Part shown: positions 10,083 to 22,425 of the stretch, piece by piece
Position numbering within the stretch: the stretch's first letter is position 1
Layout: each line of letters starts with the position of its first letter
NCBI GenBank assembly: GCA_002433235.1
Contig: DJHS01000047.1
Coordinates: 1,369 to 65,368 of the forward strand
Origin: Verrucomicrobia bacterium UBA6614
Lineage (GTDB): Bacteria; Verrucomicrobiota; Verrucomicrobiia; Limisphaerales; UBA1100
Direction: 5' to 3'
Length of the DNA stretch: 64,000 nucleotides
Notes under the pieces: generated by a model
What the model was told of the DNA's origin: nothing
Databases searched by the model: none
What the model saw: the letters and a program-made list of their open reading frames with translations, nothing else
Made by a program: the position numbers and the translations under genes

Positions 10083-10250
10083 CAGGATGGAAAGGAGTGG
10101 CTTGATGGATTAAATCTAGCCCTTTTTGCGTCGTCTTGCAGCAATTTAATTGATCTTTCTTGCGCCGGTAAAATTTTTTGAAAATTATAGTAGCCAACCA
10201 TGGGCGGTTTGCCTAGATTCGTGCCGACCCAATTCATCGCACAGGTGTTT

Positions 10251-10278
10251 CATGTCCCGACCCACATGTCGGGACATG
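10251..10278. promoter_or_regulatory. palindrome (11-bp arms, 6-bp spacer) in divergent promoter region upstream of flotillin operon
   Basis: catgtcccgac-ccacat-gtcgggacatg, followed by AT-rich gtttaaagtttaaactgaaactgaaa ~55 nt upstream of ATG 10335. Confidence 0.3.
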
Positions 10279-10334
10279 GTGTTTAAAGTTTAAACTGAAA
10301 CTGAAATTATTCTTCCAACCAAAGGCTTAAAATC

Positions 10335-12563
10335 ATGATCGAACCCATCCTCGGTATATCTTCTGGAATCATCATCGGCGGGATTGTGTTGGGTGCTCTG
10401 GCTGTTTTTGGGGCCTTTCTGGCCATGTTTTGTCTGCGCAAGGTGAAGGCGGGTGAGGCGGGTGTGCGGACGGGCCTGGGGGGGTTGCAAGTCACCAAGA
10501 GTTACATGTTGCGAATGCCTTTTGTACACCGATGGGACATTATGGATATTCAGGTGAAGAAGCTGGAGGTAGCCCGCAAAGGCAAGGAAGGGTTGATCTG
10601 TCAGGACAATATTCGTGCGGACATTGAGGTAGCATTTTATGTGCGGGTTGATCCTGCCGAGGCAAACATTAAGGAAGTGGCCGAGGCCGTAGGCTGTGAA
10701 AGGGCCTCGGAAATCGAGCTGCTGCGCAGTTTGTTTGAGGCCAAGTTTTCAGATGCACTGAAAGCGGCGGGCAAACAAATGGATTTTGCCGATCTCTATA
10801 CCAAGCGGACGGAGTTCCGAAACATGATCATCAATGAGATCGGTAAGGATTTGAACGGATACAAGTTGGAAGACGTGGCGATTGATTATTTGGAGCAAAC
10901 AGCTCGGGACGACCATGATCCGGAGAACGTCTTGGACGCACAAGGCATTGAGAAGATCAACCGTATCACGGCGCAGATGGAGGAGGACACGAATAAGCGC
11001 ACTCAGCAGAAGGATGTGGAGATCAAGGACCAAAACGTGCGCGCGGAGATGGAGAAGCGTGAGCTGGACAAGCAAAACGAGGAGGACTTGGCTAAGCAAA
11101 CCCGTGCTGTGGAAGAGGCAAAGGCTCGCGAGAATGCCGCCGCCCAGGTGGAAGTGCAAAAGAACCGTGAGGTGTCCGAAAAGGCGGAGATTGAAGCCAA
11201 CCAGAACATCAAGGAACGTGCGGTTGAGGAGGAGCGGGTCGTGATGAGCGCCACCTACGCCAAGGATCAGGATCTGCTCCGGTTGGAACAGGAGAAAATT
11301 GAGTCGGGCGAACAGGCCTCAGTGGAACGGCAAAGGCGGGTTGGATTGCTGGAACAGGACAAGGAGGCCAAGATTATTGAGGCTGCCTTTGGCGTGGCCG
11401 AGAGCAAGGCGGGTCTGGAGTCCAAGGAAAAGGAAGTGACCACCCAGCACCAGCAGCGACTGGATGTGGAGGCGGATATGGAGGCCGATCGCGCCAAGCG
11501 AGTCTTGATGGTCAAGGCCACCGCGCAGGCGGAAGCGGCCATGGTGGAAGAAGTGAAACAGGCTGAAGCCAAGCACCAGGCTCAGAAGGAAATTGCGGAC
11601 AAGGATTTGTATCTGCAGGTGCAAGCGGCGGAAGCATCACGTCAATCCGCGGAAAAGAAGGCGGACGAAGTATTAACCATATCCGAGGCCGAGGCGAAGG
11701 CGAGTGAGAAGCGCAACCACGCCATGCAACAGGAAGCGGAGGGCAACGCTGCCTTGAAGAGCGCGGATGGGCTGGCAGAGGCCAAGGTGATTGCGGCCAA
11801 GGCCGAGGCCAAGAAGGTGGATGCTGAAGCCGAGGAGGCTCAGGGATTGGCCGAGGCCACGGTGATTGCCAAGCAGGGCGAGGCTTCTGGCTTGGCCAAG
11901 GCTGCCGAGGGCGAAGGCGAGGCGAAGGCGGTCTCCGCCAAGGGAACCGCGGAAGCCTCGGCTCTTGAGGCGCTGCGGCTGGCCGAGGCGGAAGGCACTG
12001 AGAAGCAGGGCTTGGCCGAGGCGCTGTCCAAGACCGAGATGGCCAAGGCGATTGAGTTGTTCAACAAGGCCTCGCAGGATCACGAGGAATTCCGCCTGCA
12101 ACTGGACAAGGACAAGGCGGTGGATCTCGCAGGTATCAATGTACAGAAAGATATCGCGGAGGCGCAGGCGCGCGTGGTGGGGGAGGCACTCAAGAGCGCG
12201 AATATCGACATTGTGGGTGGCGAGAACGACTTCTTCGAGAAGGTTGTACGCTCGGTTTCCCACGGTAAATCCGTTGACCGGTTGGTGAACAACAGCCAGA
12301 CGATCACGGACGTGAAGAACACCTTTTTCAATGGCGACCCGGATTACTTCAAGACGCAATTGCGCGGTTGGATCAAGGATTTGGGTGTTTCCAGTGAGGA
12401 CGTGAAGAATCTCACCATCTCGGCATTGCTCACCAAGTTAATCAGTCAGGCTGATGACAGTGGCCTGAAGTCGGTGATCCGGCAGGCGCAAAGCGCGGCG
12501 AAGGAAGCCGGTCTGTCCGATGTGGTTTCCAGTGTGTTGCTGGACGACAAGGCGGGAAAATAA
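10335..12563 (+). CDS. flotillin-like SPFH/Band-7 domain protein (YqiK/FloA family), N-terminal membrane anchor, long Glu/Ala/Lys-rich coiled coil
   Basis: TM helix MIEPILGISSGIIIGGIVLGALAVFGAFLAMF; SPFH core ~10440-11000; EA-rich repeats (AEAKA/AEAEG) characteristic of flotillins; 742 aa. Confidence 0.85.
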   Translation: MIEPILGISSGIIIGGIVLGALAVFGAFLAMFCLRKVKAGEAGVRTGLGGLQVTKSYMLRMPFVHRWDIMDIQVKKLEVARKGKEGLICQDNIRADIEVAFYVRVDPAEANIKEVAEAVGCERASEIELLRSLFEAKFSDALKAAGKQMDFADLYTKRTEFRNMIINEIGKDLNGYKLEDVAIDYLEQTARDDHDPENVLDAQGIEKINRITAQMEEDTNKRTQQKDVEIKDQNVRAEMEKRELDKQNEEDLAKQTRAVEEAKARENAAAQVEVQKNREVSEKAEIEANQNIKERAVEEERVVMSATYAKDQDLLRLEQEKIESGEQASVERQRRVGLLEQDKEAKIIEAAFGVAESKAGLESKEKEVTTQHQQRLDVEADMEADRAKRVLMVKATAQAEAAMVEEVKQAEAKHQAQKEIADKDLYLQVQAAEASRQSAEKKADEVLTISEAEAKASEKRNHAMQQEAEGNAALKSADGLAEAKVIAAKAEAKKVDAEAEEAQGLAEATVIAKQGEASGLAKAAEGEGEAKAVSAKGTAEASALEALRLAEAEGTEKQGLAEALSKTEMAKAIELFNKASQDHEEFRLQLDKDKAVDLAGINVQKDIAEAQARVVGEALKSANIDIVGGENDFFEKVVRSVSHGKSVDRLVNNSQTITDVKNTFFNGDPDYFKTQLRGWIKDLGVSSEDVKNLTISALLTKLISQADDSGLKSVIRQAQSAAKEAGLSDVVSSVLLDDKAGK

Positions 12564-12605
12564 TGTAGCAGCCCGGCTTGAGTTGGCCGGGTGGGTGCTT
12601 GAACC

Positions 12606-15600
12606 ATGGCGGAATCTCCGGACAGTGGCACTCCCGCGGAAGGCGCCCCGGCGGCGCTGGAAGGCGGGGCGTATGACCTGATCAAGCAGCGGTTGAGCGA
12701 TCAGGGCGGCCAGTTGCGGGCCAAGCTCGGGGCGCTGGATGAGCGTCGGGCGCTGGTGTTTGGATCACGCAAGCTGGAGCTGAAGAAGATGGACCGTGTG
12801 TCCACTCAGCTGAGTTGTGAGCCGCGGGACATGATCCAGTTGGGGAACAACCGGTTCCTTTTTGGCTTCAATGTTCAGCTTGGGCTGAAGCAGGGTCAGT
12901 TGGGGGATGTTTTCGCCATCTATAATTACGACGAGGCTGAGCAATCTTTCACTGAGGCTGACTTGGAGGATTTGCGCGATGAGCAGTTTGAGGAATCCTT
13001 TGCCCGACTTTTCCAGATTAACCAGGCGGCTACTTTTCATCGATTTGCCATCATCGGGACACACTTGTACATGGTGTTTCGGACGGGAACCAAGGTGGAT
13101 GATGTCACAGTATTCAAGTGGCTTTGCAAGGATGGTGCTCTAAGTTATGAGGATGATCGCAGCACGCCAGAATATTTGGCACAGGCATTCCCGAGCCAAT
13201 ACAATTTCCAATGGCACACCCCGGCGCGCAACGCCATTCGTCATGGGGATAATCCGCATGTGTCAATCGAGGAGCGGCTGTTTGTGGAATGCGTGGGAGG
13301 GGATCTGACGATCAAGGTCGAGGACAATACCAGTACGGGCGAGGGGATTTATGCTGAGGAAGTGGAGGACCGTAACCAGAAGGTTGATGACGCGGAGATT
13401 CAATATGCCATTCAAGGATCACTGATCCTGTTGAAGGTGACGCCCTATCGCGAGAAGGAAAGCCGGTATTTCATTTTCAATGAGAAACTGCAGGCAGTGC
13501 ACCGGGTGGATTCCATTGGTCAGGCTTGTGTAATGTTGCCGGAGGAGCACGGATTGATGTTCCCGGACGGCTATTATCTGCAAACCGGCGAGTTGAAGCG
13601 TTATGAGAGTGAAATGGGTGAGATGGTGCTGGAGCGCACGGTGACGTCGCCCAACGGTGAGGATTACCTGTATGTTTTCTTCAATCGCATGAGTGGCTTG
13701 TATGCGCTGATGCCCTATCGGTTGATTGAGCAGGAGGTTTCCGAACGGATTGCGTGTAACGGGTTTTCACTTTTCCCAAACGGCGATATTGTGAGTTTTC
13801 GGGCGGAGGAAGAGGCTATCAAGCATCACATGATGCAGCTCCGGCAGTCGCCTTTCTACCAGCCGGGATTTGAGCCGGAGAGCGGGGAGCGGGAATCGTT
13901 CCTGTTCCAGGTGGGCAACAAGGCGGTGGTCAAGGCAATGGCGGAATGCAATGAAGTGTTGATTCTCATCCGGAAGGAATCGCCGTACGCGGACCTGTAC
14001 GCCGATATGGCTTCCAAGGCGCAAGCCATTCCGGATAATTATTCATGGCTGAATTCTGAAGAAGCTCAGGGGGTCAGTGAGATTTTAAGGGAGATTGCCG
14101 GCACGGCCGAAAAGGCGGTGGCGGAATTTGACAAGGTAAGGCGGCTGCGGCTGGAGGCAAGAGAGCGCTCAGGCGATATTGCCGCGCGCGCAAAGACGCT
14201 CTTCGGTCAAGTGGGCCGCGCGGATTTCCGGTCGGTGGACGACTTTGTGGCCAACCTCGGTGGGCTGCGGCGGATGCGTGGCGAGATCATCACGCTGCGC
14301 GATGAGGTACGCTTCATCGACAAGGCGGCGATGGAGGCGCTGGAAACTCAGGTGAAGGAGCAGGTGGACGAGCTTTCGCAGAAATGTGTGGAATTTCTGC
14401 TGCAGCCGGAATCGTTGAATCCATACCGCGAACGCGCGGAGGAACAACGCGGGCGTGTGGATGGCGTGACCACGGTGGTGCAGGGCAAGGAGCTGGAAGA
14501 GGAAATCACCACGGCCGGTTCAGATCTGGAGATGTTGATCGATATCGTGCGCAGTTTGCAGATCGACGACACCACGGAGCAGACGCGCATTGTGGAGGCG
14601 ATCACGGCGATTTATCAGGTGGTCAACCAAGTAAAGGAGGCGCTCAAGAATAAGATGCGCACCCTGATGACCGCCGAGGGCGCGGCACAGTTCAATGCGC
14701 AGATTTTGCTGTTGAGCCAAACGGCGACGAATTATCTGGATATGTCCAACTCGCCGGAGAAATGCGACGAGTACTTCAACAATATTCTCAATCAGCTGGA
14801 GGATCTGGGCGGCGACTTTGCGGATTTCCCGGAATACATCGAGCAGTTGGACGAGAAACGCGGCGAGCTGGAGACGGCCTTCGAGCAGAAACGACTGCAA
14901 CTGGAAGAGGCGCGCAACCGCAAGGCCACGGCGCTGGCGTCCTCTGCCGAGCGCATGCTTAAGAGCATTGAGCACAAGCTGGGCACGTTCGAGGATGTTA
15001 ATGACATCAATGGCTACATGGCCGGGGACCGGATGATTGATTCGATCCGTGAGCGGGTGGAGGAACTGCAGGCGCTCGACAAGGTCGGCGAGGCGGAAGG
15101 CATCCTGAGCCAACTCAAGAGCGTGCACGAGGAGGCGGTACGGCAGATTAAGGACAAACAGGAACTTTACGTCGATGGCCAGAACGTGATCCAATTCGGC
15201 AAACACAAGTTCGCCGTTAATGCCCAGCCGCTGGACCTGACTATGGTGCGCCGCGGCGAGGATCAAAGCCTTCACCTTACCGGTACTCAATACTTTGACG
15301 AGGTGGCCGATGAAGCGTTCTTGGCCACGCGTGAGGTGTGGAACCAGACGGTTGTGTCCGAGGACAATGAGGTTTACCGCGCCGAGTATCTCGCGTTCCT
15401 GCTGTGGCAGAAGCTGGAACAGGAGGGCATCGATCGCATGACTGCGGTGGCAGCCATGAGTGACGAGGACCGTTTACAGGTGGTTCAAGATTTCATGGGC
15501 GATCGGTACTCAGAGGCGTACACGAAGGGAATTCATGATCAGGATGCCGAGAAGATTCTGGCCGCACTGCTCAGTACACAATCGGCGCTGCAATTGGCAC

Positions 15601-18224
15601 GTTATTACCCTCGCGCGCGCGCCTGTGCCGCTGTCTTCTGGCACAAGTTTTGCGAGGCTGACATACAAAAGCTGATGTTGGCCCGGCTGGAAGGGTTTGC
15701 CGCGCGCAATGAGGCGTTTCCCGGTGATCCCACGCAGGCCGATTATGTGGCTGAGTTACGCGCGATGGTGGCGGCATTTATTGAAGAGACGGGTTTATTC
15801 CCAACGGCTGATGCCGATCCCGCGGGTGAGTACCTGTTCTACGAGCACACCAATGGTCGGGACTGGGTGGTGAGCCAGGAGGCGGACAGCCTGCTCACGG
15901 AATTTGAACATCACCTCATCAAGTCCGGTAATGAGTCGGAATTTGTCAAGGCGCAGAAACCGTTGCAAAAAGATCCACACAGTCATTACCAGCTTGTTCG
16001 CGACTGGGTGCGTGGCTTTCTGTTGGATCGCAATGGGGCCAACAAATACCTAGAAGAAGTTTCCGCGCTCATCTTCTGTGGGCACCACCACAGACAGGCG
16101 GTGGTCAAGGCCGCCACTGGACAGGTGCTCAAAGGCATCCAGGGTGCGCACGATGCGGTGCAGGAGGGTGGGCAGTACGAATTTGATTATTTGTCTTTCC
16201 AGGAAAAACTGGGGCGGTTTGTGCGTGAATCCGTACCGCGCTTTGAGGCGTATCAGGAGCTGAAGCAGAAGATTATTGAGGAGGAGAAGGAGGCTTTGCG
16301 CCTGCATGAGTTTGAGCCGCGCGTGTTGTCCTCCTTTGTACGGAACCAGTTGGTGGATGAAGTGTACTTGCCGATCGTTGGCGATAACCTCGCCAAGCAA
16401 ATCGGTGCTGCGGGCGATGCCAAGCGCACAGATCTCATGGGTCTACTGCTGCTCATCTCGCCTCCCGGGTATGGTAAAACCACCTTGATGGAATATCTCG
16501 CCAACCGCATGGGCCTGATTTTCATGAAGATCAACGGCCCGGCGCTCGGCCACGAGGTGACCTCGCTCGATCCCGAGGAGGCACCCAATGCCGGTGCGCG
16601 TGAGGAAGTGAAGAAGCTCAATCTTGCGCTGGAGATGGGCGACAACGTGATGATCTACGTGGACGACATCCAGCACTGTCACCCCGAGTTTCTGCAGAAG
16701 TTTATTTCGCTTTGTGACGCCCAGCGGAAGATTGAGGGCGTGTGGCGCGGCCAGCCGAAGACCTACGACATGCGCGGCCGGCGCGTAGTGGTGGTGATGG
16801 CCGGTAACCCCTACACCGAGAGCGGTGAGAAATTTCGCATTCCGGACATGCTTGCCAACCGTGCCGACACTTACAATCTTGGTGACGACATGAAGGGCAG
16901 AGAGGTCGCCTTCTCCGGTAGTTACATCGAGAACGCCATCACCTCCAATCCCGTGCTGCAACCACTGGCCAAGGCCGCGCAGAAGGATATTCAAGCCTTT
17001 ATTCGCATGGCCGAGACCGACCAGCGCGAAGGCATCGAGTTGCAGGGCAATTTCTCCGCCAACGAACAGGAGGAATTGATCAATGTGATCAAGAAATTGA
17101 TCACGCTGCGCGATGTGGTTCTCAAGGTGAACCAGCTCTATATTGAGAGCGCCGGTCAGGCCGATGAATTCCGCACCGAACCCGCTTTCAAAATGCAGGG
17201 TTCCTACCGGAACATGAACCGCCTTGCGGAAAAGGTCCTGCCGATGATGAACGAGCAGGAGCTGATGGATCTCGTGCTCGACCACTACAAGGGCGAGAGT
17301 CAGACCCTGACTACAGGTGCCGAGGCGAATTTTCTGAAGTTTAAGCAGCTCATCGGCGTGATGACTGACGAGGAAGCTGAGCGCTGGGAGGAAATCAAAC
17401 GCACCTTCGGCCGCAACCAATACCTCCAGGGCGGCGACCAAAACGATCCCGTCAGTCGCGTCGTCAGCCAGCTTTCACTGTTCAGTGGTGGCCTGGAAAA
17501 TATTCAGGACACTTTAAAAGAGGAGTTTTCCAAGGCTCGTTCAACCAACGTGGAATTAGGCGGGATGAGTGAGAGTATTGACTCACTTCGCGAAACGGTG
17601 TCTGAACACCTGAAGCAACAGTCCGAGGCGTCCAGGGAGAATCCTGAGCTGAGCGGGGTGAACGAGAATTTGACGGCCCTGCGGGCGTCGCTTGAAAACT
17701 ATCTGACAAGGGAATCGCAGGGAACTGCGCAATCCGAGGCGGGTGAAACCCCGGCTAAGCCGGTAGCTCCACAGTTCTCCGCCATTAATGAGAATCTGGG
17801 TGCCCTCCGTTCGGCGGTGGAGGCGTATTTGTCACGAAGTGAAGAGTCGACGCAATCCGTGGCCGGCAGCGAAACCGCCCAGTACCTCCAAACCTTGGCG
17901 GCCCACATGAACGAGGGGCTGGCAGCAATTCGCACGGACATGGCGGAGGCCATGAAACAAATGCAGTCCAGCCAGATTTCGCAGCAGGTGTCAGCCATGC
18001 AGGATAGTATCGTGGGACTTCGAGACGTGCTGGCGCAGAACCGGGAACGCCTCAAGCAGGTTCAAGGCAGGCTGAAGGAGGCGGAGCCCGAGGTGGTGAT
18101 GGAGTTTAGCGAGGAAATGATCGACAATAATGAGGCACTCCTTCGCGCCATCTCTCAACAGATTGAGCAACTCCGGGAAGAAGGAGAAGGGGATTCACCG
18201 GGCAAGCCCGAATCTTCACAATAG
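12606..18224 (+). CDS. giant (1872 aa) cytoplasmic protein with one MoxR/AAA_5-type AAA+ ATPase module and long coiled-coil regions; function unknown
   Basis: Walker A LLISPPGYGKTTLMEYL (nt ~16455-16500), Walker B MIYVDDIQHC, then HPEFLQKFISLCDAQRKIEGVW and VVVVMAGNPYTE...DMLANRADTYNL mirroring MoxR/midasin-type DEINRA..Q..LLEAM.E..V.I.G / ATQNP.E...LDRF; 42-nt gap to flotillin stop; coiled-coil tandem repeats NENLxALRxxxExYL near C-terminus. Confidence 0.8.
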   Translation: MAESPDSGTPAEGAPAALEGGAYDLIKQRLSDQGGQLRAKLGALDERRALVFGSRKLELKKMDRVSTQLSCEPRDMIQLGNNRFLFGFNVQLGLKQGQLGDVFAIYNYDEAEQSFTEADLEDLRDEQFEESFARLFQINQAATFHRFAIIGTHLYMVFRTGTKVDDVTVFKWLCKDGALSYEDDRSTPEYLAQAFPSQYNFQWHTPARNAIRHGDNPHVSIEERLFVECVGGDLTIKVEDNTSTGEGIYAEEVEDRNQKVDDAEIQYAIQGSLILLKVTPYREKESRYFIFNEKLQAVHRVDSIGQACVMLPEEHGLMFPDGYYLQTGELKRYESEMGEMVLERTVTSPNGEDYLYVFFNRMSGLYALMPYRLIEQEVSERIACNGFSLFPNGDIVSFRAEEEAIKHHMMQLRQSPFYQPGFEPESGERESFLFQVGNKAVVKAMAECNEVLILIRKESPYADLYADMASKAQAIPDNYSWLNSEEAQGVSEILREIAGTAEKAVAEFDKVRRLRLEARERSGDIAARAKTLFGQVGRADFRSVDDFVANLGGLRRMRGEIITLRDEVRFIDKAAMEALETQVKEQVDELSQKCVEFLLQPESLNPYRERAEEQRGRVDGVTTVVQGKELEEEITTAGSDLEMLIDIVRSLQIDDTTEQTRIVEAITAIYQVVNQVKEALKNKMRTLMTAEGAAQFNAQILLLSQTATNYLDMSNSPEKCDEYFNNILNQLEDLGGDFADFPEYIEQLDEKRGELETAFEQKRLQLEEARNRKATALASSAERMLKSIEHKLGTFEDVNDINGYMAGDRMIDSIRERVEELQALDKVGEAEGILSQLKSVHEEAVRQIKDKQELYVDGQNVIQFGKHKFAVNAQPLDLTMVRRGEDQSLHLTGTQYFDEVADEAFLATREVWNQTVVSEDNEVYRAEYLAFLLWQKLEQEGIDRMTAVAAMSDEDRLQVVQDFMGDRYSEAYTKGIHDQDAEKILAALLSTQSALQLARYYPRARACAAVFWHKFCEADIQKLMLARLEGFAARNEAFPGDPTQADYVAELRAMVAAFIEETGLFPTADADPAGEYLFYEHTNGRDWVVSQEADSLLTEFEHHLIKSGNESEFVKAQKPLQKDPHSHYQLVRDWVRGFLLDRNGANKYLEEVSALIFCGHHHRQAVVKAATGQVLKGIQGAHDAVQEGGQYEFDYLSFQEKLGRFVRESVPRFEAYQELKQKIIEEEKEALRLHEFEPRVLSSFVRNQLVDEVYLPIVGDNLAKQIGAAGDAKRTDLMGLLLLISPPGYGKTTLMEYLANRMGLIFMKINGPALGHEVTSLDPEEAPNAGAREEVKKLNLALEMGDNVMIYVDDIQHCHPEFLQKFISLCDAQRKIEGVWRGQPKTYDMRGRRVVVVMAGNPYTESGEKFRIPDMLANRADTYNLGDDMKGREVAFSGSYIENAITSNPVLQPLAKAAQKDIQAFIRMAETDQREGIELQGNFSANEQEELINVIKKLITLRDVVLKVNQLYIESAGQADEFRTEPAFKMQGSYRNMNRLAEKVLPMMNEQELMDLVLDHYKGESQTLTTGAEANFLKFKQLIGVMTDEEAERWEEIKRTFGRNQYLQGGDQNDPVSRVVSQLSLFSGGLENIQDTLKEEFSKARSTNVELGGMSESIDSLRETVSEHLKQQSEASRENPELSGVNENLTALRASLENYLTRESQGTAQSEAGETPAKPVAPQFSAINENLGALRSAVEAYLSRSEESTQSVAGSETAQYLQTLAAHMNEGLAAIRTDMAEAMKQMQSSQISQQVSAMQDSIVGLRDVLAQNRERLKQVQGRLKEAEPEVVMEFSEEMIDNNEALLRAISQQIEQLREEGEGDSPGKPESSQ

Positions 18225-18236
18225 AATCTGATGGGA

Positions 18237-19025
18237 TTATTTAATCTCAGGGAACTGTATCCAACGGTCCAATCCCTTGCCGTCTTCCTTGACTTCCTCC
18301 TGAACCACGACCGGCTTTGACGCGGGCAATTCCGTGGCAGACGGTGTTGGCTGGGCCGGCTGGGCTTTGGGTGCCGACAGTGTAGCCGGTTCCGGTTGTT
18401 TCGGTAATGGTGCGGGCTCTTCTTCTGTATCGTCCTTTATATCGAAGCTGCTGGTGAAGGATGATTTGGTGAAACTTGAGGATGAAATAAAGGGTGACCG
18501 GGTCTCTTGGGCGGGCTCCGGGGCAGGAGTTTTTGTGTCGGCCGCGGGAGCCTCTTCCTCGGGCTTGGCCCAGTTGATGTGGATGGCTGGGACCACGCCT
18601 ACCTCGATTTCGAAATTGCAAAGCTCCAGCGAGGAGAGGTTAACCTTGTCTTCCATCTGTTCCGCCTTGCGGATGGCTTTTAGTAGAGCGCTGACCACCT
18701 TGCGATCTTCATGCTTTTCAATCAGTTTCCTGAAGGCGCGGTCACTAATGTCTTCCACGCGACGAATACTGGGCACGACCTTGGGGTTGAACCCCATCTC
18801 GATGCGTAGTCCGATCAACTCATATCCTGCCTCCTCAAAAACAGACGTCGACTCCTGGATCTCCGTCAGGGTATCCATGATCTTCTCCTCGTTGTCTGCC
18901 TTTAGGTCCGACACCGTGCCTTCCACCTCCTCCCGCAGTTCGCGCAGGGTGGTCGAGCCCTCCTCAACCGCCTTGCGGATTTTCTCCGCTTTTGCCTTAA
19001 GATTCTTGATGAAACTGATCGCCAT
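18237..19025 (-). CDS. hypothetical acidic protein with Pro/Ala/Thr-rich low-complexity linker
   Basis: 262-aa ORF convergent with giant gene (12-nt gap); N-terminal ~170-aa helical domain, PAPEPAQ...PKAQPAQPTP linker, C-terminal LDRWIQFPEIK. Confidence 0.55.
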   Translation of the reverse strand: MAISFIKNLKAKAEKIRKAVEEGSTTLRELREEVEGTVSDLKADNEEKIMDTLTEIQESTSVFEEAGYELIGLRIEMGFNPKVVPSIRRVEDISDRAFRKLIEKHEDRKVVSALLKAIRKAEQMEDKVNLSSLELCNFEIEVGVVPAIHINWAKPEEEAPAADTKTPAPEPAQETRSPFISSSSFTKSSFTSSFDIKDDTEEEPAPLPKQPEPATLSAPKAQPAQPTPSATELPASKPVVVQEEVKEDGKGLDRWIQFPEIK

Positions 19026-19190
19026 GATATTTCCCGGGTTTGATGTTTGATATAGACGGTTTCGGCCGACGGCGCTGGGTGCCGCAATCCTAGGCTTTGC
19101 CTCGAGAAAGAAAAGTCAAATTTGCATATTGGCAGTGGGCTTCAAGCTGCCTACAATCGAATCACCCGACGCACGCAGATTCTTGTGGCC

Positions 19191-19904
19191 ATGAAAGATC
19201 ACGAAGTAAAAGATTATCTCCGAAAGACTTTTGATGACGGCAGGCTTGTCCGGAAGGAGCGGGATGCCCTGCAGGAATTGCTGGGCAAACGTGGAGTCAA
19301 CGACCAGAAGCGGGCGTTGTATCGCAGCATGGCTTTTGACATCGCCCGGGAGGTGAGTACGGCCGGCGATGCTGAGCAAAGACGCATGGTCATGGATTGG
19401 CTGGAGGCCGTCATCAAGGCCTTTTACCCTGCTGAGCCCATTGGTGTGGACGCCAACCGTGTCGAGGCAGAGGTATGGTTCAGCCCGGATGATGATTGCG
19501 TGGGCCGAATAATTGATCTTCTTGCCCAAGCCAGGCAAACCGTCGACATCTGTGTCTTTACCATAACCGACAACCGCATTGCCGAAGCCATCGCGCGTGC
19601 CCACCAGCGCGGCGTTCGGGTTCGCGTGATTTCCGATGATGACAAGGCCTTTGACAAGGGATCAGACGTGGGCCGGCTGCGCGGCCAGGGCATTGATTGC
19701 CGCGTGGATAACACCGAGCACCACATGCATCACAAGTTCGCGATTTTTGACCATCGGCTTTTGTTGACTGGCAGTTATAATTGGACTCGATCCGCCGCAT
19801 TGAACAATGAGGAGAACTTTGTTATTAGTGGCGATCCGAGGTTGTTGAAAAATTTCGCCCGAATGTTTGACAAGCTTTGGGCTGATTTCGGTCGGACCTC
19901 ATGA
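19191..19904 (+). CDS. phospholipase D-family single-HKD nuclease (Nuc/BfiI-like) with ~80-aa N-terminal extension
   Basis: HMHHKFAIFD...TGSYNWTRSA HxK(x)4D(x)6GSxN motif near 19727-19790; ATG 19191 (MKDHEVKDYL); ORF track opens at 19122 with TTG. Confidence 0.75.
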   Translation: MKDHEVKDYLRKTFDDGRLVRKERDALQELLGKRGVNDQKRALYRSMAFDIAREVSTAGDAEQRRMVMDWLEAVIKAFYPAEPIGVDANRVEAEVWFSPDDDCVGRIIDLLAQARQTVDICVFTITDNRIAEAIARAHQRGVRVRVISDDDKAFDKGSDVGRLRGQGIDCRVDNTEHHMHHKFAIFDHRLLLTGSYNWTRSAALNNEENFVISGDPRLLKNFARMFDKLWADFGRTS

Positions 19905-19923
19905 CCCAGCGCGCTCCAAGCGC

Positions 19924-22425
19924 ATGAAAAGCACGGAGCCATCCCCGCCCAAACGCAAGATTCGCCTTCGGTTCAAGGCGAAGGACTTGGAGCGCATTGA
20001 TATTGATGCGCTTCGCCGACAGCTTGGAGTAGCAAAGGAAAAGGAGCGCGGACCGAAGCCCTCAATCGAGACTGAGCCGGAGCCGGTTGTGGAACACACG
20101 TCTCCGCCAACTATCCATGAGCCATCCATTTCTGGGCAAGCGCAGCCGGGAATTCAGCAGAAGATCTCTTGGCGGTATGTTGCATTTGGTGCGGCTTGTT
20201 TAGGCGTCCTTGGGTTGATTGCATGGGGAATGGTCGGAGTTGTCAGCGGTCTGCTTGATAGTGGTTTAAGGGAGGAAGCCAAACCGAAGGTTCAAGGCAA
20301 CGGGGAAAAAGCTCCACCCGCGCCTTTATGGCCTAGGATTCCTGAGACAAAACCAAATTCACAAGTTCAAGTGATGGCGCAGAAAGGGAATCCGGATGCG
20401 GCGTTTGATTGGGGGGTTCATTTGGCCGGAAAGCTGGATGGCAACCCTGAGCTTGCCCCGGAAGTGTTTAATCATTTTCGGATTGCCGCCGAGGAAGGTC
20501 ATGGCCCCGCTATGATGAACCTCGCATGGTGTTATGAGAACGGCGTTGGAACGCCAGCTGAAATCACTGAGGGCCTCGGCACTGAGTTACGGGCAGAGGC
20601 TGATTTGCCGATTAGTCCCAAGGGTGAAAATTCTCGAATGGGCTGGGCAATTTTGGCGGGCATGGTGGGTTGGTTCGTTCTTTGGGCTGTATCCTCTATG
20701 GGCTGGAGCAAACGGATGGCAGGCCTTTCTGAAGAAGAACGGGGGTTTGTCGGCAAAGCGGCGCATGTTCATCTCGGCGGGTACGGGGAGGTTAGTTTGA
20801 AATCCATAGGCGGATTAGTCCTTTGCCCGCTTGTGCTTGGGTTTGCATGGATGATTTATCAGTCGGGCATCTGGGCAGGCGATGTTTTATACGCGTCAAT
20901 TGCGTTTGGCCTGCCGGCTTCAGTGTTGTTGCTTTACATTGTATCTCGGTTTCGCTGGGAACCGTTTGCGGCCTTCAATTATCACGCCGGCACCCGGATG
21001 CCGGATGGCTTCTGCGAAGAGACAGAATTCCACATGCTGATCCGAAAACTTCCCCTGCTGGTCATGTTGACGCTTTTGTTTTGGGATCTGGTCGAGCTTG
21101 GTTGGGCATTCTGTCTGGCTGTTGGACTGGTTTGGTGGATTCTTGGGAAAGGAGTTGATCCATTGCCACAGATTGACCTAAAGCCGCCCCGGAATGGGTT
21201 GGAAGAATCAAAAAAATATTGGTGGCCCATCCAAAACCTCCCCCGGTTTATTTTCATTGCGGCAGCTTATTATCTGTTTGGTTGGTTTGGGTTTTTGGCG
21301 GGATTTTCAATCTGTGCGATTGATATGTTGCCCTTGACAGGTTCCAAGCCACCGCCACGATTGCCTGAGACTTCAGCGCAATTCATAGAGCGAAGGGTTA
21401 TTCATAATGTGTCAGCGATGAGGGTTTGGTGGGGCGTTTGGGTAACACTTTTATTGGTATTGTCGTTAACGAGCGAGTATGCGGTGAGTATGGTAAGGGA
21501 GATTGGAATTATTTCGTTCATTATCGCAATCATCTTTCTGTCATGGATGTGGCCCAAGGGATCCAAGATCCAGCCGGAAGCTATTCGATATATGCCGAGA
21601 TGGATCGCGGTTGCTTGGGCACAAGTCGTCATAGGGTATGCCTGCTGGGCATTCACTGGATTGGTGTGGGTTCAATTCACTTTCGTCGTCTTGGGATTGC
21701 TGGGGTTGTCCTTTTGCCGGATGATACTTCTCAATGGAGAAAAAACATCCCTAGGTCGCCAATTGACATGGGGTTTTCGTGATGAGTGTTGGCTTATGAG
21801 TTGGTGGCGAATTAAATCCCCGCATTTGCTTTTCACGGCGGCAGTTGTGGGGGCGTTGCTGGTTTTATGGGAGAATGGCCTTGTATTTTACGGCCTCAAG
21901 CAATGGGGAATTGGCACGGTGGTATTGGGAGGGATGTTTATTTTGGCGGTTGGGAAGGGCGGGGAAGAAAGCGGAGATAACAGAAATTTATCCCGCCTTG
22001 CGAAACCGGACTTAAGGTTGAGCAGTGTGTTGGCCGAGAATGGCATTCTGATCCTGGCGGGAGGGATGTTGATTGCCTTGCTCGTTCCGGAAAATTCAAG
22101 GTTTGGATGGTTTGAATATTTTTGGGCAGCGACCTTGTTTATGGGCATGCCAATCATGTTCTTGGTTGCCTTGGCTTGGGTGAAGCTTCGGAGGCTATCC
22201 TTGTTCGGAAAGCAGTTCAGAGAGCGTGAACCGATATTTGTTCATGAAACAAGAGGTTTGCAGGTGAGATGGGGTAGACTTTGTGCTGTAGCTGTTCTAG
22301 CGGGAATCTTGGCGGCTTCGACGATTACCGGCTTAACCGGCGGCATGCACAAGGGCTTTCGAGTAATCGTTGATGGCTGGGGTTATCAAGTAATCGATGG
22401 GGGATTTTACCTCCCGGATAAATAG
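19924..22425 (+). CDS. polytopic membrane protein with N-terminal Lys-rich cytoplasmic tail and a Sel1-like repeat; unknown function
   Basis: ATG 19924 (MKSTEPSPPKRKIRLRFKAK); Sel1/TPR-like AAFDWGVHLAGKLDGNPELAPEVFNHFRIAAEEGHGPAMMNLAWCYENGVG near 20390-20550; >15 hydrophobic segments; local GC ~40-50% versus ~60% background. Confidence 0.7.
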   Translation: MKSTEPSPPKRKIRLRFKAKDLERIDIDALRRQLGVAKEKERGPKPSIETEPEPVVEHTSPPTIHEPSISGQAQPGIQQKISWRYVAFGAACLGVLGLIAWGMVGVVSGLLDSGLREEAKPKVQGNGEKAPPAPLWPRIPETKPNSQVQVMAQKGNPDAAFDWGVHLAGKLDGNPELAPEVFNHFRIAAEEGHGPAMMNLAWCYENGVGTPAEITEGLGTELRAEADLPISPKGENSRMGWAILAGMVGWFVLWAVSSMGWSKRMAGLSEEERGFVGKAAHVHLGGYGEVSLKSIGGLVLCPLVLGFAWMIYQSGIWAGDVLYASIAFGLPASVLLLYIVSRFRWEPFAAFNYHAGTRMPDGFCEETEFHMLIRKLPLLVMLTLLFWDLVELGWAFCLAVGLVWWILGKGVDPLPQIDLKPPRNGLEESKKYWWPIQNLPRFIFIAAAYYLFGWFGFLAGFSICAIDMLPLTGSKPPPRLPETSAQFIERRVIHNVSAMRVWWGVWVTLLLVLSLTSEYAVSMVREIGIISFIIAIIFLSWMWPKGSKIQPEAIRYMPRWIAVAWAQVVIGYACWAFTGLVWVQFTFVVLGLLGLSFCRMILLNGEKTSLGRQLTWGFRDECWLMSWWRIKSPHLLFTAAVVGALLVLWENGLVFYGLKQWGIGTVVLGGMFILAVGKGGEESGDNRNLSRLAKPDLRLSSVLAENGILILAGGMLIALLVPENSRFGWFEYFWAATLFMGMPIMFLVALAWVKLRRLSLFGKQFREREPIFVHETRGLQVRWGRLCAVAVLAGILAASTITGLTGGMHKGFRVIVDGWGYQVIDGGFYLPDK

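Follow-up and report, generated by a model that had tools for sequence, protein, structure and literature searches.

A 64-kb stretch of contig DJHS01000047.1 from Verrucomicrobia bacterium UBA6614 was analysed (64,000 nucleotides in all, hereafter called the window), in which a gene for a flotillin-type SPFH protein is followed on the same strand by a gene for a 1872-aa ATPase, here called the giant. Downstream lie three further genes, coding for a 262-aa protein (protein X), for a phospholipase D (PLD)-family enzyme and for a polytopic membrane protein. The placement of all five genes in a preliminary description of this DNA was confirmed by the open reading frame (ORF) list and the translations, and so was the distance given there between the flotillin and giant genes, the spacer being read directly in the sequence:

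10335-12563, + strand: gene for the flotillin-type SPFH protein, 742 aa (ORF list and translation)
12564-12605, + strand: flotillin-giant spacer, 42 nt (read directly in the sequence)
12606-18224, + strand: gene for the giant, a soluble ATPase of 1872 aa in the DUF3686 or 'DNA repair ATPase' family (ORF, Pfam)
18237-19025, - strand: gene for protein X, 262 aa (ORF), convergent, 12 nt past the stop codon of the giant
19191-19904, + strand: PLD gene, 237 aa from the ATG at 19191 (the ORF spans 19122-19904)
19921-22425, + strand: gene for the polytopic membrane protein, 834 aa from the ATG at 19921 (the ORF spans 19867-22425)

The conservation of the flotillin-giant pair was followed by tblastn with our own queries in the fetched loci (numbered with the prefix L) that include at least 3 kb of DNA upstream of the giant gene. 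In 67 of these 70 loci, a flotillin gene lies within 3 kb upstream of the giant in the same orientation, and the pair was present in at least 10 phyla, namely Verrucomicrobiota, Planctomycetota, Bacteroidota, Desulfobacterota, Kiritimatiellota, Omnitrophota, Clostridia, Gammaproteobacteria, Actinomycetota and Deinococcota. The two genes are thus syntenic in related genomes and well beyond them, and this linkage across phyla supports the earlier claim that flotillin and giant AAA+ protein are a real functional pair. The giant gene itself was detected in at least 585 species loci (one genome per species), including those of Verrucomicrobiota, Planctomycetota, Bacteroidota, Desulfobacterota, Kiritimatiellota, Omnitrophota and Clostridia. 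On three verrucomicrobial contigs with giants 53-76% identical to that of the window, the giant is preceded by a flotillin-like gene of 725-784 aa. The same arrangement was found on the chromosomes of Proteus, Vibrio and Halomonas, and on plasmids of Hymenobacter, Pseudomonas fluorescens SBW25 (pQBR103), Streptomyces and Deinococcus the gene directly upstream is annotated as 'flotillin family', as 'SPFH domain-containing' or as a hypothetical protein of ~650 aa. No homologue of the giant was detected in phage records, nor, in a search at the DNA level, in complete Escherichia coli genomes.

Within the 42-nt spacer of the window no terminator-like site was detected, in a promoter and terminator scan that as a whole gave no excess of sites over shuffled sequence. 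The spacer contains a short G+C hairpin, with CCCGGC (12572-12577) pairing with GCCGGG (12587-12592) and no run of T. Given the short spacing, the lack of a terminator-like site between them and the conserved gene order, the flotillin and giant genes are likely co-transcribed.

The flotillin was matched to Band_7/SPFH with an E-value of 6.9e-14 when its N-terminal 261 aa were scanned alone against Pfam, but the full-length protein gave no Pfam family even at an E-value of 10, presumably as an artefact of the composition filter caused by its Glu/Ala-rich coiled coil. A Streptomyces homologue likewise lacks a full-length Pfam match, and automated annotation may overlook this subfamily of flotillins systematically. 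At NCBI, homologues are named 'flotillin family protein' or 'SPFH domain-containing protein'. Hydropathy analysis revealed one hydrophobic segment, at the N-terminus. This anchor (aa ~5-35) is followed by RKVK, by the SPFH/Band_7 domain (aa 36-183), by a long Glu/Ala-rich coiled coil and by a conserved C-terminal domain (HEEFRL...GGE..FF), as seen in an alignment of homologues from five phyla. By the positive-inside rule, the protein would have an N-out/C-in topology.

The giant is a member of a catalogued family, as it matches the Pfam families DUF3686 (PF12458; aa 37-479, E-value 5.3e-154) and DUF7902 (PF25472; aa 603-685). Further towards the C-terminus, AAA (28.5 bits) and AAA_5 (27.4 bits) were both matched just above their cut-offs, while AAA_3 was not matched. 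As stated in the preliminary description, the AAA_5 ATPase is the sole catalytic module recognised, no peptidase, VWA or other catalytic domain being found by Pfam; a VWA family was also absent from all five window proteins and from the Pfam-annotated neighbours of the giants in L001, L004, L005 and L093. Neither a hydrophobic segment nor a signal sequence was found in the translation, so the giant is predicted to be cytoplasmic and soluble. More than 2000 homologues were retrieved in a homology search, under the NCBI name 'DNA repair ATPase'. Its parts, as located by AlphaFold2 (AF2) models, with their predicted local distance difference test (pLDDT) values, and by alignment, are:

12777-13847, + strand: N-terminal beta-propeller, aa ~58-414, with ~28 strands, consistent with seven blades (AF2 model m26f5901f6551, Foldseek)
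13899-15161, + strand: helical rod, aa ~432-852, of three-helix spectrin-like bundles, which includes DUF7902 (model)
16428-16925, + strand: AAA+ core, aa ~1275-1440 (motifs, alignment, model)
16926-17435, + strand: lid and helical domain, aa ~1441-1610, with the invariant RTEPxFxLQGSYRNMN (model mefd1a81aff95, pLDDT 85-96; invariant columns)
17463-18221, + strand: variable, low-complexity helical C-terminal tail, aa ~1620-1872 (alignment; low-pLDDT helices)

In the model of aa 1-1200 (mean pLDDT 79, with most of the propeller region at 75-90), a long helix (aa 21-52) precedes the propeller, and helix and propeller together make up Pfam DUF3686; beyond the rod, a small beta region (aa 860-920) was predicted poorly, and more helical domains extend to aa ~1157. 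The propeller was matched by Foldseek to PDB entries of prolyl oligopeptidase, Vps18, the N-terminal domain of clathrin, a trilobed protease propeller and WD repeats, with E-values from 2e-5 to 1e-3. When 1.84 billion representative proteins were searched with DUF3686, 615 clusters were obtained, and the full-length matches were always N-terminal in proteins of 1600-1930 aa. The DUF3686 propeller is therefore exclusive to the architecture of the giant, which argues for a dedicated partner rather than for a general enzyme. The C-terminal tail is short or absent in many homologues, for instance in that of Hymenobacter (1633 aa).

The AAA+ core contains a Walker A motif, SPPGYGKTT (1285-1293), a Walker B motif, VDDIQH (1352-1357; nt 16659-16676), a sensor-1 asparagine, N1401, in AGNPYTE, and the sequence PDMLANRAD with R1419; R1535, in the lid and helical domain, is a candidate sensor-2 arginine. 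The model also predicts, ahead of sensor 1, a beta-hairpin (1376-1387) that separates the Walker B helix from strand 4. The Walker A, Walker B, AGNPYTE and PDMLANRAD motifs are conserved from Verrucomicrobiota to Actinomycetota, and no part of the protein is better conserved than the AAA+ region, at ~70% identity across phyla. Walker B carries Asp-Asp instead of the usual Asp-Glu, invariantly in all eight aligned sequences from five phyla. The best structural matches of the core were midasin, dynein and MoxR proteins, all of them weak. The model of aa 1150-1872 has a mean pLDDT of 64.7, a mediocre value due in part to a second, cross-phylum homology search having returned nearly the same verrucomicrobial set, with little diversity. 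An assignment to an AAA+ clade from sequence was dropped in favour of structure, as phmmer and a five-sequence profile against the PDB reached no more than the strand and helix of the P-loop in p97, RuvB and others. The spacing NP-x12-LxNR in the giant resembles the MoxR pattern. The label of a MoxR or AAA_5 protein thus stands as plausible, if weakly tested. In one relative (L095, 4159-9192, on a contig of 1.5 Mb), the giant was called as four ORFs (DUF3686, a 147-aa piece, DUF7902 and AAA), which could be either a decaying pseudogene downstream of an IS200 insertion or the result of frameshifts in a long-read assembly.

The gene combination had been put forward as an undescribed system, and in this the preliminary description was wrong. 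Operons in which a Band-7/flotillin gene is joined by genes for a beta-propeller AAA+ ATPase and for a YqiJ/YuaF protein with three transmembrane (TM) segments, in combination with CesT/Tir and PspA, were reported by Ravi et al. (mSystems 2024, preprint 2020; PMC11237479), and in that paper some proteobacterial operons add an HKD phospholipase D, abbreviated operons (flotillin, YqiJ and sometimes the ATPase) from which the CesT/Tir and PspA pair is missing are said to be widespread, and such operons are also read as membrane-stress systems, in a purely computational description. The plasmid locus of Hymenobacter, with an ATPase 46% identical to that of the window, matches this class exactly, as the order of its genes is Tir-like chaperone, PspA, DUF1449, flotillin and ATPase. 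Therefore, the module is already described, but it appears to be experimentally uncharacterised. Literature searches for DUF3686, for PF12458 and for 'DNA repair ATPase' together with flotillin returned nothing.

Partner genes of this kind recur around the giant in other phyla. A YqiJ-like gene was found upstream of the flotillin gene in 51 of 66 loci. Its product, with three hydrophobic segments and a beta-rich C-terminal part by hydropathy, was identified by the NCBI label 'DUF1449 family protein', by the 3-TM hydropathy profile and by the account of Ravi et al., with no Pfam family assigned. CesT/Tir and PspA genes accompany many of the Bacteroidota loci. On pQBR103 (L007, 1-6818), genes for PspA/IM30, a rhomboid protease, DUF2491, DUF350, DUF1190 and a glutathionylspermidine-synthase-like protein precede the pair on the same strand, a set that corresponds to a cluster of the E. 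coli yjfJ-K-L-M-C type. By tblastn, no YqiJ-like gene is present in the window, and none was found in its clade. The statement that the pair has no VWA or NfeD partner thus holds for the window and, as regards VWA, for the sampled neighbours, but not for the family, given the YqiJ/NfeD-like gene in those 51 loci.

In the sampled Verrucomicrobiota, YqiJ and protein X are mutually exclusive, YqiJ being absent from all loci with X. Protein X had been called an orphan, but in no fewer than 11 further loci a homologue is found next to the giant gene: directly after it and co-directional in L004, L005, L012, L013, L038, L093, L095 and the P0325 contig, and directly after it but inverted, as in the window, in L001, L010 and L011. 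X belongs to the operon as a third, clade-specific gene and is inverted in the lineage of the window; no inverted repeats flank the inverted gene. Alignments revealed a conserved N-terminal domain of ~165 aa, a disordered Pro/Ser/Thr linker, an SSF(F) motif and a short conserved C-terminal motif, D..L.R[FW]..[FM]P, seen as D..LARFKKMPDLS or DKWTSFPDIS. The protein has no hydrophobic segment by hydropathy and no match in Pfam, NCBIfam, PADLOC or a profile search of the PDB, an NCBIfam hit to GvpQ (1.8e-3) being far below the cut-off. X may be an adaptor, with its C-terminal peptide as a candidate ligand for the propeller of the giant.

The PLD carries a single HKD motif (PLDc_2 in Pfam, E-value 1.1e-30; HHKFAIFD...GSYNWT) in a MitoPLD/Zucchini-like catalytic domain, preceded by a helical N-terminal domain of ~100 aa, and no hydrophobic segment was found by hydropathy. 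In the PDB its best matches are MitoPLD/Zucchini (9lkx and 4ggj, 1e-31), with Nuc (4e-12) and NucT (7e-10) far behind. Therefore, of the earlier label 'single-HKD PLD-family nuclease', the first part stands, but 'nuclease' as the sole reading does not, as it is no better founded than 'cardiolipin hydrolase', the closest solved relatives being named 'mitochondrial cardiolipin hydrolase'. The gene adjoins the giant in the Verrucomicrobiota loci L001, L010, L011, L093, L095 and the P0325 contig, lying 8 nt after X in L093 and abutting or overlapping X in L095 and the P0325 contig, and it is also next to the module in L039 and L087 from Bacteroidota. In Vibrio campbellii (L091), a PLD with 42% identity, including the N-terminal helical domain, is encoded 70 nt downstream of the giant on the same strand. 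The locus scan detected it in 6 of 72 loci. Of six PLD homologues whose neighbourhoods were looked up, three lie elsewhere in their genomes, away from any giant, which makes the enzyme a facultative accessory. Two of these three (L094, 10001-20693; L097, 3959-10167) lie a few kb from canonical genes of MoxR systems, the neighbours being bpMoxR/AAA_3, DUF58, DUF4381, BatA-VWA and BatD in Stieleria and DUF58 and TgpA in a metagenome-assembled genome of Planctomycetaceae; this proximity may be a coincidence or reflect a wider association of the PLD subfamily with MoxR systems.

The start codon of the PLD is almost certainly the ATG at 19191, as the 237-aa product is 100% identical to the database protein P0292, and that of the membrane protein is likely the ATG at 19921, 17 nt beyond the stop codon of the PLD. 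Because X is inverted in this lineage, the two genes may need a promoter of their own, and one candidate was found:

19129-19157, + strand: promoter-like site TTGGCA-17-TACAAT (consensus scan), 34 nt upstream of the PLD start codon

This site could serve the PLD and membrane-protein genes as a separate promoter, but it is a positional hint at most, the scan as a whole having given no more sites than shuffled sequence.

The 834-aa membrane protein has ~12 hydrophobic segments by hydropathy. The Sel1 label given to it earlier could not be maintained, since it comes from a single stretch in the N-terminal soluble part, with an E-value of 0.056 and 14.5 bits against a cut-off of 30.7. Weak collinear matches at the ends link it to a gene of 635 aa located behind the PLD in L001, a 703-aa ORF holds the same position in L010, and no tblastn match was found in any other fetched locus. 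It is, as judged from these comparisons, a fast-evolving protein restricted to the closest relatives of the window. Its GC content had been reported to fall to ~40-50%; the minimum is 0.47-0.50 over 21000-22200, against ~0.56 around, and 40% is not reached. The T-rich skew of 21000-22200 is what a polytopic membrane protein gives, and a reading of this low-GC stretch as horizontally transferred was rejected, the dip being small and matching such a T-rich composition.

Around these genes the window carries housekeeping genes, namely those for a xylose-isomerase-like TIM barrel protein, a major facilitator superfamily (MFS) transporter, an esterase, a thioredoxin-PDZ protein, a PQQ_2 (BamB-like) beta-propeller protein, Ham1, a DHH protein and a LarA-like protein. 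On the upstream flank, the AP_endonuc_2, MFS and thioredoxin-PDZ genes keep the same order in a relative at 76% identity. The surroundings are conserved housekeeping synteny, not a defence island. Most genes around the locus are on the + strand, and the cumulative GC skew rises to 9.1, the skew being strongly positive almost throughout the window apart from a brief reversal at ~25-32 kb, a pattern that fits a position on one replichore.

Upstream of the flotillin gene, a perfect 11-bp inverted repeat (CATGTCCCGAC / GTCGGGACATG, with a 6-nt spacer) lies at 10251-10278, ~60 nt before the start codon, and could be an operator or a hairpin of the 5'-untranslated region; it is not conserved in the upstream region of L001 when the two are compared. 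An AT-rich block, ATTATAGT(A/G)GC, at ~10168-10190, is conserved between the window and L001. At the flotillin-giant junction, an IS200-type Y1_Tnp gene (150 aa) was found in L005 (9176-9628), in L095 (3128-3580) and in the P0325 contig; in L005, two small ORFs also lie between flotillin and giant. The element may be a hairpin-targeting IS200/IS605 or RAYT-like one, possibly inherited once.

What the module does can be approached from several directions. The near-obligate linkage to a flotillin, the exclusive propeller, the architecture of rods and AAA+ domain, the membrane-stress partners in other phyla and the precedents among SPFH proteins together point to a machine that remodels flotillin assemblies, or what these contain, with energy from ATP, in the handling of membrane stress, a reading to which we give a probability of about 0.5. 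A propeller and spectrin-like rods joined to an AAA+ domain, with midasin, dynein and MoxR proteins as best matches, fit a remodelling ATPase with substrate-docking arms. Both partners would lie on the cytoplasmic side, the flotillin because its single N-terminal anchor is followed by RKVK and the giant because it lacks both TM segment and signal sequence. As precedents, an SPFH cage partners an AAA+ machine in HflK/C-FtsH (PMC12048511), flotillin assembles into a closed cage (PMC11260169), YdjI, an SPFH protein, holds PspA at the membrane (PMC8581546) and FloA-NfeD holds unfolded proteins (PMC11222466).

In the mechanism proposed, the flotillin would be anchored by its N-terminus, with the SPFH, coiled-coil and C-terminal domains facing the cytoplasm, and, by analogy with solved SPFH proteins, it would oligomerise into a dome or cage that marks a patch of the inner membrane. 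The single MoxR/midasin-like AAA+ domain of the giant presumably forms a ring, from which each subunit would extend a spectrin-like helical arm tipped by the beta-propeller as a docking domain. During membrane or envelope stress, the ATPase would assemble, open or disassemble the flotillin assemblies or act on the clients held in them, and its relation to SPFH scaffolds would be that of Vps4 to ESCRT-III/PspA-type polymers. A 3-TM YqiJ/YuaF protein joins the pair in most phyla, often with a CesT-like chaperone and PspA; in the verrucomicrobial clade YqiJ is missing and the soluble X takes the adjacent place. The PLD would be an optional effector, plausibly a lipid-modifying one that converts, for example, cardiolipin to phosphatidic acid. 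Gene content, domain architecture, the conservation of the pair and the spread of the accessory genes are observed, and it is inferred that the proteins interact physically, that the giant forms a ring and remodels, that the PLD acts on a lipid and that X is an adaptor. A more specific version is put forward tentatively, and we think it may well be wrong: the giant would be a dedicated, ATP-driven disassemblase or gate-opener of flotillin cages, a hexameric MoxR/midasin-like ring with six arms, whose propellers grip the termini of flotillin, X or YqiJ, with the Zucchini-like PLD converting cardiolipin to phosphatidic acid locally and so aiding membrane repair.

Several observations weigh against the remodelling of flotillin assemblies. 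An adjacent flotillin is lacking in 3 of the 70 loci, and neither PspA, CesT nor YqiJ is encoded in the window. With Asp-Asp in Walker B, the giant may hydrolyse ATP slowly or in a regulatory way. PLDs of the Zucchini type act as nucleases too, and the enzyme of the window is matched to NucT and DrmC in NCBIfam and PADLOC. The patchy distribution, which includes megaplasmids, would also fit an accessory or conflict function, and no experimental study of the flotillin-giant module was found in the literature.

Other roles were weighed against the same evidence. The flotillin could be a recruiting platform and the giant a MoxR-like chaperone that acts on PspA/IM30 polymers or on unfolded or mis-assembled membrane proteins kept in the flotillin microdomain, and not on the scaffold itself. 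This is doubtful, since PspA and CesT are lacking in most loci, the window included, whereas the flotillin is almost always there, and since the VWA/MIDAS adaptor usual for MoxR proteins is missing among the Pfam-annotated neighbours of the four loci named above. An anti-phage or conflict system, in which the flotillin senses envelope perturbation, the giant transduces or amplifies the signal and the PLD nuclease is the effector, by abortive infection or in the manner of DrmC in DISARM, would account for the patchy phyletic distribution of the family, for its occurrence on megaplasmids such as pQBR103 and on plasmids of Hymenobacter, Streptomyces and Deinococcus, for the IS200-type genes inserted in the operon in some genomes and for the matches of the PLD to DrmC, MkoB/C, DpdK and NucT models; giant NTPases are, moreover, common in conflict systems. 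We consider it unlikely. The PADLOC-DB v2 matches of the PLD (DrmC, MkoB, DpdK) are those of a generic PLD, closer to MitoPLD/Zucchini than to DrmC, and the enzyme is present in only a minority of the loci, while the flotillin had no match in that database and the giant only weak partial ones that fall short of a significant model (the LmuB coiled coil at 1e-5; P-loop-only matches at 5e-3 or weaker). Homologues borne by phages were not found, the recurring partners are the membrane-stress genes YqiJ, PspA and CesT and polyamine genes, and the neighbours in the window are housekeeping genes in conserved synteny.

Much the same can be asked of the database names, 'ATPase involved in DNA repair' in Pfam and 'DNA repair ATPase' at NCBI, by which the giant would be an ATPase of the SMC/SbcC type, with the flotillin next to it by accident. 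A weak match to the SMC-like LmuB in the coiled-coil region, a LexA-family regulator near the Hymenobacter locus and photolyase, glycosylase and ligase genes near L095 would agree with such a role, but it is very improbable. The giant has no DNA-binding, nuclease or ABC/SMC ATPase domain, its AAA+ domain is contiguous and near the C-terminus, unlike an SMC head, its near-obligate partner is a membrane protein and there is no adjacent Mre11-type nuclease. Neither the domains, nor the gene context, nor the literature searched, in which no experimental backing was found, support the names, which probably derive from coiled-coil similarity to SbcC/SMC-type COGs such as COG0419, an origin consistent with the weak LmuB match.

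If the giant is indeed a dedicated disassemblase or gate-opener of flotillin cages, bacteria would have a recycling factor for SPFH scaffolds comparable to Vps4 or NSF, and flotillin assemblies of any kind would gain their first known regulator driven by energy, which would explain how closed SPFH cages exchange their contents. An ATPase of 1600-1900 residues that almost never occurs without an upstream flotillin is the most obvious candidate for such a regulator, and the name 'DNA repair ATPase' on its family is misleading. New in this work are the quantified linkage, the exclusivity of the propeller, the first structural outline and the verrucomicrobial variant with X, without YqiJ and often with the Zucchini-like PLD. 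The module is carried by tractable bacteria (P. fluorescens SBW25 with pQBR103, Proteus mirabilis, Vibrio campbellii and Streptomyces), and pQBR103 offers a ready genetic system for the link to PspA and polyamines.

Compared with known systems, an analogy to HflK/C-FtsH, drawn in the preliminary description, is useful as a functional idea but not as membership, since the giant has neither membrane anchor nor protease domain. HflK/C-FtsH and prohibitin-m-AAA share with the window an SPFH scaffold coupled to an AAA+ protein, genetically and, as proposed here, physically, and the handling of membrane proteins or membrane stress. However, FtsH is a membrane-anchored Zn-protease of the classical AAA clade, whereas the giant has no TM segment, no protease and an AAA+ domain like those of MoxR, midasin and dynein; the HflK/C cage is periplasmic, whereas the flotillin of the window is predicted to face the cytoplasm. 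The pairs of flotillin and NfeD (E. coli YqiK-YqiJ, Bacillus subtilis FloT/YuaG-YuaF, Staphylococcus aureus FloA-NfeD) have the same flotillin architecture as the window, and in most phyla the operon of the giant also has a YqiJ/YuaF-type 3-TM NfeD-like gene directly upstream of the flotillin; the classical pairs lack the ATPase, whereas the window has the ATPase without an NfeD-like gene.

MoxR proteins (RavA-ViaA, CbbQ-CbbO, NorQ-NorD) and midasin/Rea1 are the best, though weak, matches to the core fold of the giant, which has a predicted pre-sensor-1 hairpin, an NP-type sensor 1 and AAA_5 above threshold, and midasin, like the giant, has a huge helical non-ATPase part that ends in a docking domain. 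The giant has one AAA+ domain in 1872 aa, in contrast to MoxR proteins of ~300 aa and to the six AAA domains of midasin, and it differs from both in lacking a VWA/MIDAS partner or domain, in the Asp-Asp of its Walker B and in the use of an N-terminal beta-propeller as the putative docking domain. With MitoPLD/PLD6 (Zucchini) and Nuc/NucT, the PLD shares the single HKD motif, which implies a dimeric active site; it lacks an N-terminal TM anchor and has instead the helical domain of ~100 aa conserved in the Vibrio orthologue.

With the operon class of Ravi et al. (PMC11237479), the window has in common the flotillin architecture (TM segment, Band-7 and coiled coil), the order of flotillin then ATPase, the occasional HKD-PLD and the propeller and AAA+ ATPase itself, present in the window as DUF3686 plus AAA with Foldseek propeller matches and helical rods, 42 nt after the flotillin. 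X goes unmentioned in the passages of that paper considered here, and the window differs in lacking YqiJ/YuaF, PspA and CesT and in carrying the inverted X and, after the PLD, the clade-specific 834-aa membrane protein. The window is thus a verrucomicrobial variant of this class, without YqiJ, PspA and CesT and with an inverted X, a Zucchini-like PLD and a clade-specific membrane protein.

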